Below are positions 6,576 through 14,870 of a DNA stretch of 40,662 nucleotides, piece after piece. Position 1 is the first letter of the stretch. Each line of letters starts with the position of its first letter. The notes below the pieces were generated by a model. The model ran no database searches. It was not told where the DNA came from and saw only the letters and a list, made by a program, of their open reading frames with translations. The stretch is taken from NCBI GenBank assembly GCA_004524445.1, contig SDNP01000028.1, forward strand, positions 1 to 40,662, in the 5' to 3' direction. A program made the translations under genes and the position numbers. This DNA is from Candidatus Thorarchaeota archaeon (GTDB lineage Archaea > Asgardarchaeota > Thorarchaeia > Thorarchaeales > Thorarchaeaceae).

Positions 6576-7328
6576 CTAAATGAGGTCAAAGCTCGTAAGT
6601 GCCTGTTCAGCCCATTTAGTCAGCGCTAGGGGACGTTCACGGCCAAATACTCTGATAGTGCGAAGAACCTCTGATTCAACAAGACTGTTGGCATAGTAGG
6701 AAACTAGACTCTTATCGAGGTCTAGGGTTCTACTTAGAACAGCTTGCGTGATACGGCCTTCGTTTTTGACTTCGGACAATATTGAACGAATTGTAGGATT
6801 TCGCGTTATGGCGGCAAGCATTAGGGTATTTTCATCATCGGAATAATTTCGCATGAAGAAATGCCGTGAGTTTCCATTCCGGATGGATATGACTTCCCCA
6901 TCGGCCTCTAAATTGTCGATATGATACTGAAGAGCACCCATAGCACAATCTACTGAGCGCTGTAGCTCTCTAAGATGAATTCCCGGATTGGTGTCTATTT
7001 CCATAAGAACCCGGTCGCGAAGGGATAGTTGTTCGTCCTCACTTCTTCGTTCAGAGGCGACGGTGCCAATAGCAAATGCAACAGTAGTACTCACTGTGAG
7101 AGACCTAGTCAAAAAACTAGGAAAGAGAACGGAGGTACCACTAGTCATGGGGATAGACAACATCTGAACATCGATTGTGCCCACATCAGAATCACAAGAG
7201 AGAGAAATATCCTGAATGGCAGCGTCGCCTATTACTGCATTAGAACTGAGCAAAAAGATACTGACTAAACCTGTCATCATTAAGGACAGAGCTAATGCCA
7301 TTAGTATTTTCTGACTGCGATCGCCCAT
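6576..7328 (-). CDS. Membrane-anchored double winged-helix transcriptional regulator (COG3398-like)
   Basis: N-terminal hydrophobic segments, then I..NPGIHLREL...GALQYHIDNL and a second HTH (ITQAVLSRTLDLDKSLVSYY). Confidence 0.75.
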   Translation of the reverse strand: MGDRSQKILMALALSLMMTGLVSIFLLSSNAVIGDAAIQDISLSCDSDVGTIDVQMLSIPMTSGTSVLFPSFLTRSLTVSTTVAFAIGTVASERRSEDEQLSLRDRVLMEIDTNPGIHLRELQRSVDCAMGALQYHIDNLEADGEVISIRNGNSRHFFMRNYSDDENTLMLAAITRNPTIRSILSEVKNEGRITQAVLSRTLDLDKSLVSYYANSLVESEVLRTIRVFGRERPLALTKWAEQALTSFDLI

Positions 7329-7390: not shown

Positions 7391-7942
7391 CTACTCTCCT
7401 CTCGGCGGATAACTCATCTTAATGTGGAACGAACATAATTCGTCCCCAGTTGCCATACAGCTATCTTCGACCACGGTAAGAGACTCGTATTCAATTCTGT
7501 TATAGTCGGTCAGATATTCTAGCACAGACTCGATAAAGCCTCGCAAGAAGTAACAAGAGGGATCTTCGCTTTCATATCCTGCTGCATATGGATTATCACG
7601 AATCTCGATTATAGCTTCTTCATCCAGCCAAAGCTTGTATAGCTTGGCAATTTTGATATCCCCAAACGGTACTATGAGAGTTTCCAAAGCCATTCTTATG
7701 AATTCGACGATACCTTTGAAATCTCCAGGAGGTTTTTGGTCCCCAATCTTGAAGTATTCGCGCTGCGCCTCAAGTCCTGCGAGGCGACCTGCAGAATAGT
7801 ATAGGTCTCGCACTCTGTCTGGAAACATAACTCCGATACGATTTCCGATTTTGGTCCATGTCTTTCCAAAAAAGGCACGCATTAGCTCCTGCTCTTTTAG
7901 TCGACCTTTCCACCATTCAATGACTTCATCCTGATTAGACAT
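7391..7942 (-). CDS. V4R-domain protein (canonical Zn-binding type)
   Basis: YSAGRLAG helix, IEIRDNPYA, PSCYFLRGFIE and VVEDSCMATGDELCSF (C...ExxCxxxGxxxC V4R motif). Confidence 0.88.
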   Translation of the reverse strand: MSNQDEVIEWWKGRLKEQELMRAFFGKTWTKIGNRIGVMFPDRVRDLYYSAGRLAGLEAQREYFKIGDQKPPGDFKGIVEFIRMALETLIVPFGDIKIAKLYKLWLDEEAIIEIRDNPYAAGYESEDPSCYFLRGFIESVLEYLTDYNRIEYESLTVVEDSCMATGDELCSFHIKMSYPPRGE

Positions 7943-8013
7943 CTTGGTCTCTCCAGTCTAGCTATCAAAGGCGTGGTAAGTTAAGTGCTTTATGTTGACA
8001 GATTCAAATCGGG

Positions 8014-8487
8014 TTAACCAAGTCGCACATTCCAAACACAGGCATCTGCGCCGGTAGCACGGCTCATTTCTTGAAAGACCTTCACGTCGACTCCCTTAAA
8101 GTCCAGAATAGACTCCAATATACCACTAAAAATCTCACAGTATCCAAATCCGCGCATTCCTTCAAGGTTTACTTCTTGACACCATACGCACTCTTCATCC
8201 GTTACTCGGATAGATCCTCGTGCTGAGTCCATATCCAAATCATCAGGCTTCTTGTCATATAGGACTTTGAAAACGGTTTCAATAAGTTTGGATACATCCT
8301 CTCGTGTGGTTATCGTATCTTTTGTTTTGTCAGCAATTTCGGTATTGAGGTAAATATTCGTACCCAGTCCACGGCCGATGTCACGAAGCCTTTCATTTGC
8401 CGCCTCGATATTTCCAGTTTCCTCCATCACACCGTCAACTATCCAGCCATATATACTAAGCAACAACGGATTCTCGATATCGCCCAT
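8014..8487 (-). CDS. Bet3/TRAPP-like (V4R-fold) protein, copy B
   Basis: LLLSIYGWIV...ANERLRDIGRGLG and GYCEIFSGILESIL align by eye with recalled Bet3 motifs LFTLTYGxxV...VNxxLxxMGxxIG and YSNxLCGVLxGxL. Confidence 0.8.
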   Translation of the reverse strand: MGDIENPLLLSIYGWIVDGVMEETGNIEAANERLRDIGRGLGTNIYLNTEIADKTKDTITTREDVSKLIETVFKVLYDKKPDDLDMDSARGSIRVTDEECVWCQEVNLEGMRGFGYCEIFSGILESILDFKGVDVKVFQEMSRATGADACVWNVRLG

Positions 8488-8512
8488 TAGGATAAAACCT
8501 CACATATTCCAA

Positions 8513-9502
8513 TCATAAAGTCTTGCCAATCATACTAACATTCTTTCGGTATTTTGCAAGAATCTTGATAACCATCTGCTTCTGGACCCCAGCAGCTTCT
8601 GCTACTTCTTCAGTAGTACGTTTGCCATCACAGAATCTTAGAATATCCTTGTCTGCATCCTTTGCTTTCGAAAGATCACCCTCAAATTTTGGACACTTCA
8701 CGAATTGGCCCATGGTGCCTGCCCTCCCACCCTCTCCACCTTCGGCTTCAATGACTGGTACATCAACAATATTCTTTGAGGCAGCCCATTTTATGCACTC
8801 AATAACGCGCTCTGTGGACTGAAACATCGAGTCAGCAACTTGAGATATACTCAAATTACCGTCAACAAGCATCAAGACATCAAAGCCAAAATTCCGATAT
8901 GTCTTCTTCATCTCGCTGGACAGCTCAGAGTCCAACGACAATGACTTGGCATATGCAGATCCGCGTTTTGGGACCGTACTAGGCGTAACTCTGAAGTCCT
9001 CAGGGGATCTCTCTTCCGCCTCGGCTTCATGTATTTCCTCTACAGGTTCTGCTTCAGGAGTAGCCGATACTTCAGCAGCTTCCGGTTCTTCTGCTGTTGT
9101 AGAGGCGGCTTGAATTCCTATGCTCTCTAGTACCTGCAGATTACCTTCAGCAGACTCCTCGAATTCATCCGGAGGCGGGGGAAGCTCTATTCCCTCCAGC
9201 ATTCTAAGTACATTCTTGGTTTTCGCAATAGCCAATCCAAGCTGCAATTCAGGTACATATAGAACAGTGAGAATCCAGTGTTCATCCACGGGGGATAATA
9301 CAACTAGACCTTTTTCAGTATCAATAGTCATGAGTCTCAAGTCAGATTTGTATAAAGAGATGCTATCTTTAACTCGTGGAAAGAGCTCATCTGGGAATGA
9401 AAAACTAACAAAGGGGCGTCCCCCGTTTGTCATTAATGAGTATCCCAGCACTTGATCATCAAATCTTAGTTTTGAAAGGGCTCTCTCTAAATCGCTGGAC
9501 AT
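8513..9502 (-). CDS. Roadblock/LC7-like N-terminal domain + acidic linker + two winged-helix domains, copy B
   Basis: Start MSSDLE at 9502 behind a GAGGAG SD (ORF extends to 9565). N-terminal helix, VLGYSLMTNGGRP, LMTIDTEKGLVVL, LGLAIAKT pattern. C-terminal LMLVDGNLSISQVA and RFCDGKRTTEEVA HTH-like motifs. Confidence 0.7.
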   Translation of the reverse strand: MSSDLERALSKLRFDDQVLGYSLMTNGGRPFVSFSFPDELFPRVKDSISLYKSDLRLMTIDTEKGLVVLSPVDEHWILTVLYVPELQLGLAIAKTKNVLRMLEGIELPPPPDEFEESAEGNLQVLESIGIQAASTTAEEPEAAEVSATPEAEPVEEIHEAEAEERSPEDFRVTPSTVPKRGSAYAKSLSLDSELSSEMKKTYRNFGFDVLMLVDGNLSISQVADSMFQSTERVIECIKWAASKNIVDVPVIEAEGGEGGRAGTMGQFVKCPKFEGDLSKAKDADKDILRFCDGKRTTEEVAEAAGVQKQMVIKILAKYRKNVSMIGKTL

Positions 9503-9715
9503 GATTATGCTCCTCGAATACTCTGGCTGTGGTCTAAAACTGCACTCACAATTCTTCCTTCCCAAGTATAGTGAAAAGGGTTGCGGTAATGAATCACAGC
9601 AACTGCATGATTATTGTGAGAGTGTGGTAGGAGAAACATATCCACGATTTTAGCAGTGATGTCAACAACATTAAGAGGCATTTTCATAACTAACAGTTGC
9701 TGGAGGATAGAAAAA

Positions 9716-10291
9716 ATGCGGAATTTTCTTGGAGGCCTCGTTGGTTCGATCTTGGCAATGACCTTAGCTTATATCATAATAGGGAACCAATCTATTGTCT
9801 ATCCTGAAAATGTACAGATGATTGAATTCCTGCTCACGGGTTCTCTTATCCTCTCCGATTCACTAGAGAGTATTTTTTCGCTCAATTTCATGGGAAAACT
9901 TTTGCTTATCTGGGGCGTAGTAGGAGCGATTATCGCACCATTCGCAGTTAGCGAATGGAATATATTTAGGACAACGTTCTGGCTTGGGGGCATAATAGCA
10001 ACATTCGCACTATCATCTACGTTATTGGTGAATCCTGATTTTTGGTTCCAAAATGATAGAAATCTGCTCCTAGCTTTTCTGTATGCAAAGACCATCATGG
10101 CTTCTCTAATCTCTGTTCCTTTCTCATTACTGGCATTTAAGGCAAAGAAACGATGGTTGAGAAAAAAACCAGAACCGATACCGGAGAGAATTGAAACAGT
10201 CTGTGAGTGCGGAGCGGTCTACAAGTCGAATCCTCTTGTCTGTGTAGAGTGTGGTAGACAACTTCGAGACATTGTCGATGAACCCCAATAA
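9716..10291 (+). CDS. Multi-pass membrane protein with C-terminal zinc ribbon
   Basis: ATG at 9716 behind GGAGG. About four hydrophobic helices, a basic stretch, then CECGAVYKSNPLVCVECG. Confidence 0.8.
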   Translation: MRNFLGGLVGSILAMTLAYIIIGNQSIVYPENVQMIEFLLTGSLILSDSLESIFSLNFMGKLLLIWGVVGAIIAPFAVSEWNIFRTTFWLGGIIATFALSSTLLVNPDFWFQNDRNLLLAFLYAKTIMASLISVPFSLLAFKAKKRWLRKKPEPIPERIETVCECGAVYKSNPLVCVECGRQLRDIVDEPQ

Positions 10292-10292
10292 A

Positions 10293-10808
10293 TTATCTGG
10301 GCCGTGAGATTCCGCCGCCCAAAAGACCACCTACAATGCTGGCAATTGCAGGATAAAGCGCACCCTCCAATACAACCTGCAATATGAGCATGGATTCTCC
10401 ACCGATTATTGCGGCGTAGTCAGTGGTTTGAACAAAGAAGATTAGCAACCAACTCAGAAAAGCACCAATAATCACTGCGAATAGAGCGGCAAATATACCC
10501 TGAATAATATCACGTGAAAGAAGACCGGCAATAAGGCCACCAGTCCCCCAGACTAAGAACATGAGAACCTCGCTGCCCGTTGCTCCATATCCGATGTAGA
10601 TTCCGATGTTTACCCCACTCAGTGTTGTTGGATAGAGAACTGTGGATATAATAACCAGTTTGAGTTCGAGATCACTTCTTGACAAGAAGTCACCTATGAT
10701 AGCAGGATCAATTACCTCCGGTGGGATAGCAGCTCCAAATGTCAAGATGAGGAAAGTCAACGCAAAAGCAACCAACAATCCTGCCAGTGTGCCGATACCT
10801 TGACCCAA
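10293..10808 (-). CDS. Gly-rich multi-pass membrane protein
   Basis: About four TM helices with GxxxG motifs (VWGTGGLIAG, IVGGLLGGG). TTG start behind GGAGG. Downstream of and co-oriented with Bet3-like copy A. Confidence 0.8.
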   Translation of the reverse strand: MGQGIGTLAGLLVAFALTFLILTFGAAIPPEVIDPAIIGDFLSRSDLELKLVIISTVLYPTTLSGVNIGIYIGYGATGSEVLMFLVWGTGGLIAGLLSRDIIQGIFAALFAVIIGAFLSWLLIFFVQTTDYAAIIGGESMLILQVVLEGALYPAIASIVGGLLGGGISRPR

Positions 10809-10891
10809 TCTATGGCCTCCAAATCAAACTGATACTATCATCCAAATGTAATGTTTTAAGCATATTCAAGAGGGTGTTCCGTCTGCTTAAT

Positions 10892-11398
10892 TCAGTCTAA
10901 TTCTCTGAGAGTCCATGTGCAGACATCGTCACCCAATGCCTTACAGGATTCCTGAAATGACTCGGCATTGAAGCCACGTAATTTCATGACCGCATCGAAT
11001 ACGCCACTTACTAAGTTGCAGTATTGTAGTCCAGGCATATCAGTGATTTGAACCCCTTCGCATATCGGGCAATTGGCATCAGTATATTTGATGGTCTTCC
11101 CGTCACCGCTGATCCATACATCTGTGAAGTCTTGACCAGAATTGACTTTATACGCGAGCTTAAGCGTGTCCGAAAATTCCACAAAATCGGCAGCATGTTC
11201 TTTTATTCTGTCGGCGTAATCCATCAGGAGAGTTTCTCCCACCTTGAATCCAACATCTTTCATTTTCTTGTTTATATCATCAACACTGTCACTTGTCGCC
11301 ATCAACATGTTCTGCAGCTCTCTATATGTAGCCTGAAATAGTGTTTTTGAAACCTTGTCGATTTTTAGAGCCCAAGCGAGTTTTCCTTTGATACCCAT
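10892..11398 (-). CDS. Bet3/TRAPP-like (V4R-fold) protein, copy A
   Basis: KVSKTLFQATY...INKKMKDVGFKVGETLLMDY and LQYCNLVSGVFDAVM resemble recalled Bet3/Trs31 motifs. C-terminal ESCKALGDDVCTW is V4R-like. Confidence 0.8.
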   Translation of the reverse strand: MGIKGKLAWALKIDKVSKTLFQATYRELQNMLMATSDSVDDINKKMKDVGFKVGETLLMDYADRIKEHAADFVEFSDTLKLAYKVNSGQDFTDVWISGDGKTIKYTDANCPICEGVQITDMPGLQYCNLVSGVFDAVMKLRGFNAESFQESCKALGDDVCTWTLRELD

Positions 11399-11413
11399 AT
11401 CTTTACCTCCAAT

Positions 11414-12340
11414 TCATATTCTTGATTTACGTACGAACTTGACGGTCTTCCCTCTATATGGAACTACACTCTGAAGAGCCTGAAAGTATGGTATACCCAG
11501 CATTTGTGCTATCTCTTGTAGAGTGTGAGTGCCATCGCATTTTTCGACTACGTTGCGATGCTCCTTCTTTATCTTGCTTAATTCGCCCTCAAAAATAGGA
11601 ACTTCTACAAGTTCCTTCTTTTCTAAAGCTTGTTCCTCAGGGCACTCGGCCGAAACAATTTTTCGTGAAACACACCAACGGAGAGTATCCATGACTTTCT
11701 CAACCTGTCGAGCCACTGCCTCAGCAATTTTGAAGGCAGTTCGACGCTCATCGACCATCATGAGGATGTCAAGAGCAGTGTTTCCAAACTTGGCAATGAG
11801 TTCGGCATTTATAGGTGTGTTTGTGGTCATTGATTGACTGTAGTTTTCGTCTCGGTGAATTATGCAGCCATGTCTCATCTCCACTTCATCAGGGAGAGGA
11901 TGCTCATCAAAAGAGTCGACAGAGGGGGCTTCTTCAACGGTTGTTGCTTCTACTTGGATTGTTTCTTCAGCTTCTTCTAAAGATGTTTCAGGCTCAGCTT
12001 CTGTCACTGGACTGGGCGGAGAAGGCAGGTCAACTTCACCTAGCAACTCCATTACGCTCCGAGTCTTTTGCAGTGCCATGCCTAAGGACTCTTCCGGTTT
12101 GAAGAGGACGCCCAAAACCCAACTACTATCAACCCGTGCTAGAACGACCGTTCCTGCACCACTCATTATGTTCATCAGTTTCAGAGATTCGGCATGAATT
12201 CCTAGAGTCTCCTTGATTGTGGGGAGAATTTCATCAGGTAGAGAAAAAGAGAGGAAGGGGTTTCCATCGTTGGTGAAAAGAGCATAACCACTGACGGACT
12301 CATCAAATCTGAGTTTCGTTAGTACTCGCTCTAATTCCAT
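11414..12340 (-). CDS. Roadblock/LC7-like N-terminal domain + acidic linker + two winged-helix domains, copy A
   Basis: Clear paralog of 8513-9502 (LERVLTKLRFD.SV.GY.L.TN.G.PF.SFS.PDE; FEGELSK; CDG..T..EIA). Confidence 0.72.
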   Translation of the reverse strand: MELERVLTKLRFDESVSGYALFTNDGNPFLSFSLPDEILPTIKETLGIHAESLKLMNIMSGAGTVVLARVDSSWVLGVLFKPEESLGMALQKTRSVMELLGEVDLPSPPSPVTEAEPETSLEEAEETIQVEATTVEEAPSVDSFDEHPLPDEVEMRHGCIIHRDENYSQSMTTNTPINAELIAKFGNTALDILMMVDERRTAFKIAEAVARQVEKVMDTLRWCVSRKIVSAECPEEQALEKKELVEVPIFEGELSKIKKEHRNVVEKCDGTHTLQEIAQMLGIPYFQALQSVVPYRGKTVKFVRKSRI

Positions 12341-13521: not shown

Positions 13522-13965
13522 TTAGACCTTCTTAAGAGCTGCTTTCACCATTGAGGTGATTTTGTCCTCATCAATTCCAGTCTTATTGGAGGTCTTCTCG
13601 ATATCGCAATATGCCAAATCAGAGATGGTCAGTATTCCTGCACCAGCAAGAGCTTCGGCATTTGCTTTGCTAACACCACGAATCGATGAGAGTTCGTCAA
13701 TCGCTGTAGCGACATCAGTCGCAGGCTCTTCAAGAGACATTGCCTCAATGATATCATCAATCTCTGCAACATAATTCTTCAGAGCTTCAACGTTCTCTTC
13801 GTGGAGTGTTCTCCGTCTGAGGTCAACGATAAGCCCCATATCTCTGGTTTCAGGGATAGTGAGCTCAGCTGCTTCAATCTCCTTCTTACTAAATCCACGT
13901 CCGATGCGGGGCCGTTTGTCCTTGGGGGCTCGTACAACAGGTTCCGGGGTCATGTCGAAGCTCAT
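13522..13965 (-). CDS. rpl13e: 50S ribosomal protein eL13 (L13e) fused to a C-terminal helix-hairpin-helix domain
   Basis: PVVRAP...RIGRGFSKKEI...GLIVDLRRRTLHEENV matches eL13. Tail LSSIRGVSKANAEALAGAGILTISDLA...TGIDEDK is HhH-like. Likely start 13965 behind a GGAG SD. Confidence 0.9.
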   Translation of the reverse strand: MSFDMTPEPVVRAPKDKRPRIGRGFSKKEIEAAELTIPETRDMGLIVDLRRRTLHEENVEALKNYVAEIDDIIEAMSLEEPATDVATAIDELSSIRGVSKANAEALAGAGILTISDLAYCDIEKTSNKTGIDEDKITSMVKAALKKV

Positions 13966-14039
13966 TTTATCGTTTGCTCCTATCCAGAAGCACCGTCTTG
14001 GTGAAGCGCTTATTAGGGTTTCGAGATGGCAAGAACTCA

Positions 14040-14870
14040 TTAGAACTGGTCTAAAGAAGTCTGCTCAATAGAAAACTTCGCTTCCATTGATTCGAGTTTC
14101 TTCATCTGACGAGGCTTAATCATGTCCATTAACTCGAGCATCTGAAGAGCATTGTATGGCGCGTATCCAAAGAAGTGATTATTGAAATACCCTACAACTG
14201 CATCGGTATTACTACTCAGTTCTAGAAGCCGAGGTTTCCATTCTCTCAGTTCTTCCTCGGTGTACTTGTACTTGTACCATGGATTGGAACCGTGACCATG
14301 CCATCGAACATAGGCAAAATCAGTCGTTATCCGCATGTTCACTGGCAGGCGGGGTTCATCAACAATGACATGGGCAATATCATATTGTTCCAGAAGAGTC
14401 CAGGTTTCAGGGCCCAGCCAACTCTTATGCCTGAACTCAATCGCATATCTGAAAGATTGGTCTAAATTTGTGAAGAATGCTTCCAAGTCAGCCATTTTAT
14501 CAATGTGCCACGGGGGTAATTGAATTAGAAGTGCGGCTAGTCGATCCGATATAGGCTGGAGAAGTGTGAAGTACTCATTGAGGTCTTGTCCTGCATCCCC
14601 AGACAAATCAAGTCGATTGTCGTGTGTGACTTTCTTTGGCAACTTTGCAGTGAAGAACTTCTTTTCATCCACATTCTTCTTTAGGTATTGAATAAAGCCT
14701 TTCTTTGGGAGGGCATAGAAGGTGGAGTTAATCTCCGCAGTATCAAAGTAGGTCAAGTACTGATGGAGCAAAGAGGACATCGAATGGTAAAATATCTCTT
14801 TCCACCCAGTTGAGTCTTTGTAAGACCAACCACTTGTGCCTATATGCAGACCCGGAATCATCAGTTTCAC
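14040..14870 (-). CDS. DUF72 (YecE-like) TIM-barrel protein
   Basis: IGTSGWSY, EINSTFYALP, LLIQLPP, AIEFRHKSW, YVRWHG and YFNNH motifs. Confidence 0.92.
   Translation of the reverse strand: MKLMIPGLHIGTSGWSYKDSTGWKEIFYHSMSSLLHQYLTYFDTAEINSTFYALPKKGFIQYLKKNVDEKKFFTAKLPKKVTHDNRLDLSGDAGQDLNEYFTLLQPISDRLAALLIQLPPWHIDKMADLEAFFTNLDQSFRYAIEFRHKSWLGPETWTLLEQYDIAHVIVDEPRLPVNMRITTDFAYVRWHGHGSNPWYKYKYTEEELREWKPRLLELSSNTDAVVGYFNNHFFGYAPYNALQMLELMDMIKPRQMKKLESMEAKFSIEQTSLDQF

Follow-up and report, generated by a model that had tools for sequence, protein, structure and literature searches.

A terminal winged helix as candidate partner of Bet3-like proteins in a Thorarchaeota gene cassette

Closest described systems

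The window analysed here, 40,662 nucleotides long, is contig C10 of the 2.79 Mb genome of a Thorarchaeota (Asgard) archaeon. Our interest is in a cassette at positions 7391-12340, in which two paralogous genes, RBHA and RBHB, each encoding a roadblock domain followed by winged helices, stand directly upstream of the Bet3-like genes Bet3A and Bet3B. TRAPP-V4R gene clusters were reportedly seen in Thorarchaeota by Zaremba-Niedzwiedzka in 2017. The closest described protein is Thor-TRAPPC3 (7YH2, 7YH3), a zinc-braced homodimer with an internal cavity, which Tran et al. 2024 (PMC10933270) solved along with Asgard roadblock and Rab proteins. The same work already covers a fusion of longin to TRAPPC3, and its authors noted that genome layout does not assign these proteins to partners. 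Bet3B (8014..8487, minus strand, 157 amino acids (aa)) is of this same type, agreeing in sequence with the 7YH3 chain and carrying an invariant Cys, and the zinc-type cysteine set is kept in both Bet3A and Bet3B. The paper, though, identifies no partner and is silent on the roadblock-wHTH (winged helix-turn-helix) gene upstream, and Bet3A (10892..11398, minus, 168 aa) is a 24%-identical unsolved paralogue of a type common to other Asgard classes, with an N-terminal MG[IV]KG motif found across these classes.

Both proteins resemble TRAPPC3 more closely than they do V4R proteins. Pfam TRAPP matches Bet3B at 38.9 bits (E 9e-10, above the cut-off) and Bet3A at 26.8 bits, slightly below it; a phmmer search with Bet3A finds 7YH3 at E 1.5e-23 and TRAPPC3 at E 3e-9, and the Bet3 profile run against the PDB finds TRAPPC3 at E 3.7e-21 to 4e-10, with C5 and C6 weaker. 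The Bet3-like identity claimed for the two genes in an earlier note on this DNA is borne out by these matches. The TRAPP core (TRAPPC3/C5/C6 plus the longins C1/C4/C2) similarly joins TRAPPC3-family dimers to roadblock/longin folds, and several Bet3-fold paralogues lie side by side in the present locus. It differs from the Thor locus in having longins rather than a roadblock, in lacking the winged-helix tether predicted here, and in the C-terminal tail and palmitoylated Cys of its Bet3: the Thor Bet3A and Bet3B end at most about 5 residues past the last strand, with no Cys at the position aligned to the palmitoylated one. It is this tail that opens the Rab nucleotide pocket during TRAPP exchange (PMC10152722). 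The earlier note had applied the label proto-TRAPP; TRAPPC3-type subunits are indeed present, but the cassette is not TRAPP, because the longin core and the catalytic tail of Bet3 are missing.

A roadblock/longin-fold N-terminus followed by tandem winged helices is also the design of NPRL2/NPRL3 (Npr2/Npr3, GATOR1/SEACIT). The RBH proteins differ from these in their roadblock topology and long acidic linker, in that Pfam NPR2 (PF06218) has no match in the genome, and in standing beside Bet3 and not DEPDC5. The cassette resembles a TRAPP/GATOR-type scaffold in its parts list, but fails both TRAPP and NPRL2/3 membership. NPRL2-like Asgard proteins were described by Liu et al. (bioRxiv 10.1101/2020.10.19.343400); their Thor family carries a longin and is probably the one represented by the genes on contig C48 of this genome. 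At C48:4095-6360 (L074, L076) we observed tandem longin-(roadblock)-wHTH-wHTH paralogues of 427 and 303 aa, with the same C-terminal module, upstream of a MinD-like ATPase. MglB/MglC and the actinobacterial conservon (roadblock, DUF742 wHTH and GTPase) likewise use roadblock and wHTH parts around GTPases, with a roadblock likeness of Z 11-13; in RBH, by contrast, the domains are fused and the central helix is short, the cassette has no kinase or GTPase, and the partner is Bet3. DUF742 matches 20 of 78 RBH family members weakly. MsvR (PMC3729527) uses an HTH-type (helix-turn-helix) domain with a Cys-containing V4R-fold domain, whereas here the two are on separate chains, helix 3 is hydrophobic, a roadblock is present and Bet3 is nearer TRAPPC3 than V4R. 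Our literature search, which left most subscription papers outside, found no description of the RBH-Bet3 pairing; the parts themselves are known.

The winged helix beside Bet3

RBHA (11414..12340, minus) encodes 308 aa, made up of a roadblock (residues 1-104), an acidic disordered linker and two winged helices, WH1 (155-236) and WH2 (240-308). WH2 (11417..11629, minus) is the predicted Bet3-docking domain, on the basis of a complex model and of a conserved Tyr285-Phe286 pair (YF; 11483-11488, minus) at the start of its third helix. RBHB (8513..9502, minus, 329 aa, most likely starting at the ATG at 9502) is a paralogue whose WH2 is without the YF pair. The gaps of 15-25 bp between RBH and Bet3 genes given in the earlier note are correct: 15 bp for the A pair (11414 to 11398) and 25 bp for the B pair (8513 to 8487), with medians in relatives of 14.5 and 28 bp. 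The A/B duplication is ancient, because the paralogues are only 32% (RBH) and 24% (Bet3) identical; its order is not derivable from the roadblock tree, which is unstable. The rest of the genome holds no further close copies of RBH or Bet3.

To follow the pairing outside Thorarchaeia, WH2 was scored with a hidden Markov model built from Thor sequences only, and a gene was counted as adjacent when it lay within 500 bp of a Bet3-like gene. The 59 non-Thorarchaeia genomes surveyed had been picked for a Bet3 match, and kin among them are not independent. An adjacent WH2 gene was found in 30 of the 59 and in 9 of the 16 families examined, among them Hermodarchaeia (9/9), Atabeyarchaeia (3/3), family f16 (6/6) and the Borrarchaeum family (5/5); this genome gives the background, with six WH2-like open reading frames (ORFs) out of about 3,500. 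The adjacency recurs in unrelated contexts and in both gene orders, while the N-terminal domain of the partner differs by lineage and can be roadblock-like, a longin or a CxxC domain (for the f4, f6 and f16 partners, roadblock is called from the pattern and from a profile match that is weak, E 0.015). The closest RBH orthologue of Hermodarchaeia carries a roadblock and WH1 only and lies by the membrane-protein genes MemB and MemA, away from Bet3, which is preceded there by a different, WH2-bearing protein. Where other partners have a roadblock or longin, this Bet3 partner (L083:6428-6970 and its Hermodarchaeia orthologues) carries an N-terminal CxxC domain that matches nothing in Pfam. In two lineages a longin is fused to Bet3 with no winged helix, and the longin of one such fusion is 36% and 32% identical to the longins of split longin-WH2 and Bet3 pairs.

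The conserved unit is a gene ending in WH2 beside a Bet3-like gene, whatever the N-terminal domain. The repeated pairing proposed in the earlier note is thus found across Asgard lineages, through WH2, while a TRAPP-like architecture with the roadblock or longin itself on Bet3 is unsupported because WH2 is the only part common to all partners. WH2 would then act as a tether, since N-termini vary, the WH2-less Hermodarchaeia orthologue lies off Bet3 and the fusions drop WH2.

The complex was modelled from two Bet3A chains and the WH2 of RBHA (238-308), each with a paired alignment, and three controls were run. The WH2-Bet3A2 model scored 0.66 and the best of the 3 controls 0.00; the runs share at least 86% of contacts, with a partner pLDDT (predicted local distance difference test) of at least 85. 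Of 80 solved pairs, 58 attain the score mark, as do 2 of 110 mismatched ones, a scale only roughly applicable to our own alignments. In the model WH2 bridges both Bet3A protomers, which it contacts with its first strand and with the P284-Y285-F286...L289-Q290 helix, and we consider it likely that WH2 of RBHA docks on the Bet3A dimer in this way. The YF pair is invariant in 34 Thor A rows and an aromatic pair is kept in the Hermodarchaeia, Atabeyarchaeia, Borrarchaeum and f33 partners; YF is absent from RBHB and from the f6, f16, f26 and f27 partners. The modelled contacts of the YF helix on the Bet3 side, Leu58 and Leu140-Arg141-Gly142, are near-invariant where the partner has YF. Position 58 is Leu with YF partners and Tyr with partners lacking it, which, with few independent events, may be a weak sign of compensation. 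The modelled Bet3A patches align to the eukaryotic segments RLI(E/D), FVELP and ALEMV. In the Bet3 tree, which holds no eukaryotic rows, Bet3A falls in a clade with Hermodarchaeia, Atabeyarchaeia, Borrarchaeum and Jordarchaeales with support of only 88/92. We know of no solved winged-helix/Bet3 complex, and a WH2 profile search found none.

Several observations count against docking and what could follow from it. The docking rests on one model of one pair, the A pair, and the interface residues of Bet3A are conserved at 0.65 compared to an average of 0.67. Two genomes of genus g16 retain RBHA with its YF pair but have at the locus only a truncated Bet3A or none, and no WH2 gene adjoins the Bet3-like genes of Jordarchaeales (f15), Baldrarchaeia (f5) or most of the Loki type. 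No GTPase was found near the cassette in Thorarchaeaceae loci. The standard MglB-type platform may also not form from the RBH roadblock, because the central helix, which makes up the surface for dimer and GTPase (PMC10933270, PMC3747258), is short: it has 14 residues at pLDDT >90 in RBHA and is about 13 residues shorter than the canonical one, as judged from a 13-residue gap in a weak profile alignment. As a separate observation, RBHA and Bet3A have been lost together in genome G009.

Fold, proposed role and alternatives

Sequence searches with RBH against the PDB gave no match, and the fold assignment comes from structure prediction. In the AlphaFold2 (AF2) model of RBHA (mean pLDDT 86.6) the acidic linker is disordered and separates the roadblock from both winged helices. 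Its N-terminal topology, a helix and then bbabbba, is that of a roadblock, and roadblocks came out on top of the fold search (VIA), with MglC at Z 12.9, LAMTOR2 at Z 12.8 and the MK-D1 roadblock at Z 12.4; roadblocks as a group score 11-13 and synbindin 8.7. Model and fold searches thus agree with the roadblock assignment of the earlier note; the domain is not a longin. The acidic linkers it described also stand (15 Asp/Glu of 48 residues; 20 of 66), but each protein has two winged helices where it saw a single wHTH. When folded alone, the C-terminal half of RBHA has the tandem NPRL-type winged helices, matching NPRL3 at Z 10.5 (8fw5_C, 138 aligned, root-mean-square deviation (rmsd) 12.2) and Npr2 at Z 9.7 (8adl_S, 73 aligned, rmsd 2.5), and its top five Foldseek rows are all GATOR1/SEA chains (E 0.002-0.04). 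The roadblock of RBHB has a mean within-family identity of 89%, compared to 64% for RBHA, which at the level of sequence suggests a constrained partner.

The reading that we favour, and to which we give about an even chance, is a soluble adaptor-receptor module, present twice, in which WH2 clamps onto a Bet3 dimer. The Bet3-like protein would be a zinc-braced dimer with an internal cavity, as demonstrated for the B-type only, and the upstream protein would clamp across both protomers with the first strand and the YF...LQ helix of its final winged helix, as modelled for A and presumed for B. The flexible acidic linker would hold an interchangeable N-terminal platform, a roadblock here and a longin or CxxC domain in other Asgard archaea, near Bet3. 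The likeliest output would be control of a small-GTPase switch, with Bet3 and V4R as scaffold or as sensor of a hydrophobic ligand. Given docking, such a GTPase-linked output seems somewhat more probable than other outputs, judging from some of the neighbourhoods and from what roadblock/longin and Bet3 proteins are known to do. After the duplication in Thorarchaeia, copy A would have kept the ancestral WH2-Bet3 contact and copy B the more constrained roadblock.

As the earlier note stated, the window encodes no small GTPase; 24 Ras-family matches lie elsewhere in the genome. Two Rab-like genes and roadblock genes lie near the Bet3 of Jordarchaeales. At L088:2844-6464 (Borrarchaeum), three tandem Rab-like GTPase genes are followed by longin-WH2 and then Bet3, all co-oriented. 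In G001, a genome of the other Thorarchaeia family, a small GTPase gene (L053:8003-8713) is divergent from the single RBH-Bet3-V4R unit, and a plain roadblock gene is located about 5 kb away.

The proto-TRAPP reading would have the roadblocks dimerise and touch Bet3A, Bet3B and the V4R protein directly, with MemA and MemB as anchors and guanine-nucleotide exchange on a Rab as the activity. The closeness of Bet3A and Bet3B to TRAPPC3 suits it, as do the longin-Bet3 fusions (also PMC10933270), a weak Sybindin match of the Borrarchaeum longin (E 0.028) and the fact that in Thorarchaeaceae and Hermodarchaeia MemB neighbours a roadblock-wHTH gene. However, the domain is a roadblock with a shortened central helix, the Hermodarchaeia partners have neither roadblock nor longin, the tail that opens the Rab pocket (PMC10152722) is missing, and the membrane genes both occur without the pair and, for MemB, are never co-oriented with the adjacent roadblock gene, so we regard this as quite unlikely. 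We find very unlikely a GATOR1-like arrangement, in which RBHA and RBHB form a heterodimer as NPRL2/NPRL3 do and act as a GTPase-activating protein with the Bet3 proteins as accessories. Both paralogues are retained in nearly all Thorarchaeaceae and the whole RBHA chain has Foldseek matches to NPRL2/Npr2 at E ~1e-5, but Pfam NPR2 finds no match in the genome, a roadblock replaces the longin, a single copy goes with each Bet3 in G001 and in other classes, and the separate tandem longin-wHTH pair on C48 suits the NPRL2/3 design better.

A split one-component regulator like MsvR, with winged helices that bind DNA and a Bet3/V4R dimer whose cysteines serve to sense a ligand or redox state, is unlikely in our judgement even though archaeal regulators are known to combine HTH and V4R (PMC3729527). 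In its favour, WH2 carries a basic charge (mean +3 to +4) and has weak matches to HTH families, a membrane-anchored double-HTH gene comes after V4R, and a sensor docked on the recognition helix could serve as an anti-regulator switch. But the third helix of WH2-A is hydrophobic, opens with the exposed YF and is buried in the modelled Bet3 interface, WH1 is net acidic, and DNA-binding winged helices score Z <=7.6, below NPRL3 and Npr2. That no physical complex exists, and co-regulation or slow rearrangement keeps the genes together, does account for MemA and MemB, and the PfkB, L13e and ABC transporter flanks are equally syntenic in Thorarchaeaceae. The WH2-Bet3 adjacency in unrelated contexts, in both orders and in nine other families, with fusions, and a WH2-Bet3A model that passes its controls make this explanation highly improbable.

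If the favoured reading of a WH2 clamp on a Bet3 dimer is right, archaeal TRAPPC3 would gain a candidate partner, domain (WH2) and residues (Y285/F286 against L58, L140 and R141), and one prokaryotic unit would join parts of TRAPP and GATOR1. The existence and build of a pre-eukaryotic TRAPP-like complex would become testable with small soluble proteins, and the Borrarchaeum operon with its Rab-like GTPases offers a setting where activity is testable. Going further, a longin- or roadblock-winged helix on a TRAPPC3 dimer could have been an ancestral Asgard regulator of Rab-like GTPases, and the common precursor of the TRAPP longin-Bet3 core, which would have lost the winged-helix tether, and of the longin-winged-helix NPRL2/3 of GATOR1; we hold this to be a speculative and rather doubtful proposal.

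Membrane genes and surroundings of the cassette

All seven clustered genes of the earlier note are present as ORFs in 7391-12340. MemB, the only one on the plus strand, lies between RBHA, Bet3A and MemA on one side and RBHB, Bet3B and the V4R gene on the other, all of them minus-strand genes. They are not one operon, because MemB is convergent with MemA and divergent from RBHB. Shine-Dalgarno motifs were uninformative as a sign of coupling, since they lie upstream of every gene, and a sigma-70 promoter scan was set aside because sigma-70 is not applicable to archaea. In one metatranscriptome a relative (90-99% alike) is represented by four short contigs, and one of these crosses the RBHB-Bet3B junction; this proves neither transcription nor co-transcription.

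Of 87 Thorarchaeia genomes, 84 have RBH genes, usually two copies each, and the seven-gene order is kept at most of 39 Thorarchaeaceae loci. We rejected this synteny as proof of one seven-gene system: it proves nothing alone, because the unrelated PfkB, L13e, DUF72 and ABC transporter flanks hold their order equally. In G001 only RBH-Bet3-V4R remains with its divergent GTPase, and no membrane genes are near.

MemA (10293..10808, minus, 171 aa, TTG start) and MemB (9716..10291, plus, ~191 aa, with a C-terminal zinc ribbon whose pattern is found in 38 of 39 orthologues) are each predicted to have four transmembrane segments, as the earlier note said. An Atlas search with MemA found hypothetical archaeal clusters only and no known family, and none was found for MemB. 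MemA homologues occur in several Asgard families, and MemA/MemB are present without RBH or Bet3 in G001, f6, f22, f28 and f29, where they often adjoin L13e, DUF72 or GluRS, two of which flank this cassette. Where MemB lies beside a roadblock-wHTH gene, the adjacency is of long standing, yet the orientations differ between Thorarchaeaceae and Hermodarchaeia and the strands are opposite. Membership of MemA and MemB is unsupported because they travel with L13e, DUF72 and GluRS, mostly without the pair; they are probably neighbours inherited from an older L13e/DUF72 neighbourhood and not subunits. The multi-subunit membrane-associated complex of the earlier note is thus upheld in its RBHA-Bet3A link, which is modelled, and not in its membrane proteins. 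Membrane binding of Bet3A by an amphipathic N-terminal helix was also considered and rejected, the mean hydrophobic moment being ~0.2. L13e, extended at its C-terminus by a helix-hairpin-helix, and DUF72 lie at 13522-14870 of the window, and both also flank MemA/MemB in f6.

The last gene of the cassette (7391..7942, minus, 183 aa) is a canonical V4R gene as the earlier note held (Pfam V4R, E 9.8e-12), and V4R comes after Bet3 in both Thorarchaeia families, G001 included. Directly downstream, at 6576-7328, is a membrane-anchored double winged-helix protein (HVO_0163-like) that is syntenic in Thorarchaeaceae. In family f22 (L133-L150) a distant Bet3-like gene, which has no winged-helix neighbour, is coupled to one whose product of ~487 aa carries a V4R-like domain at its N-terminus, and elsewhere in the present genome (C19:53658-55273) an ORF of 330 aa with a C-terminal V4R domain is preceded by two small hydrophobic proteins.

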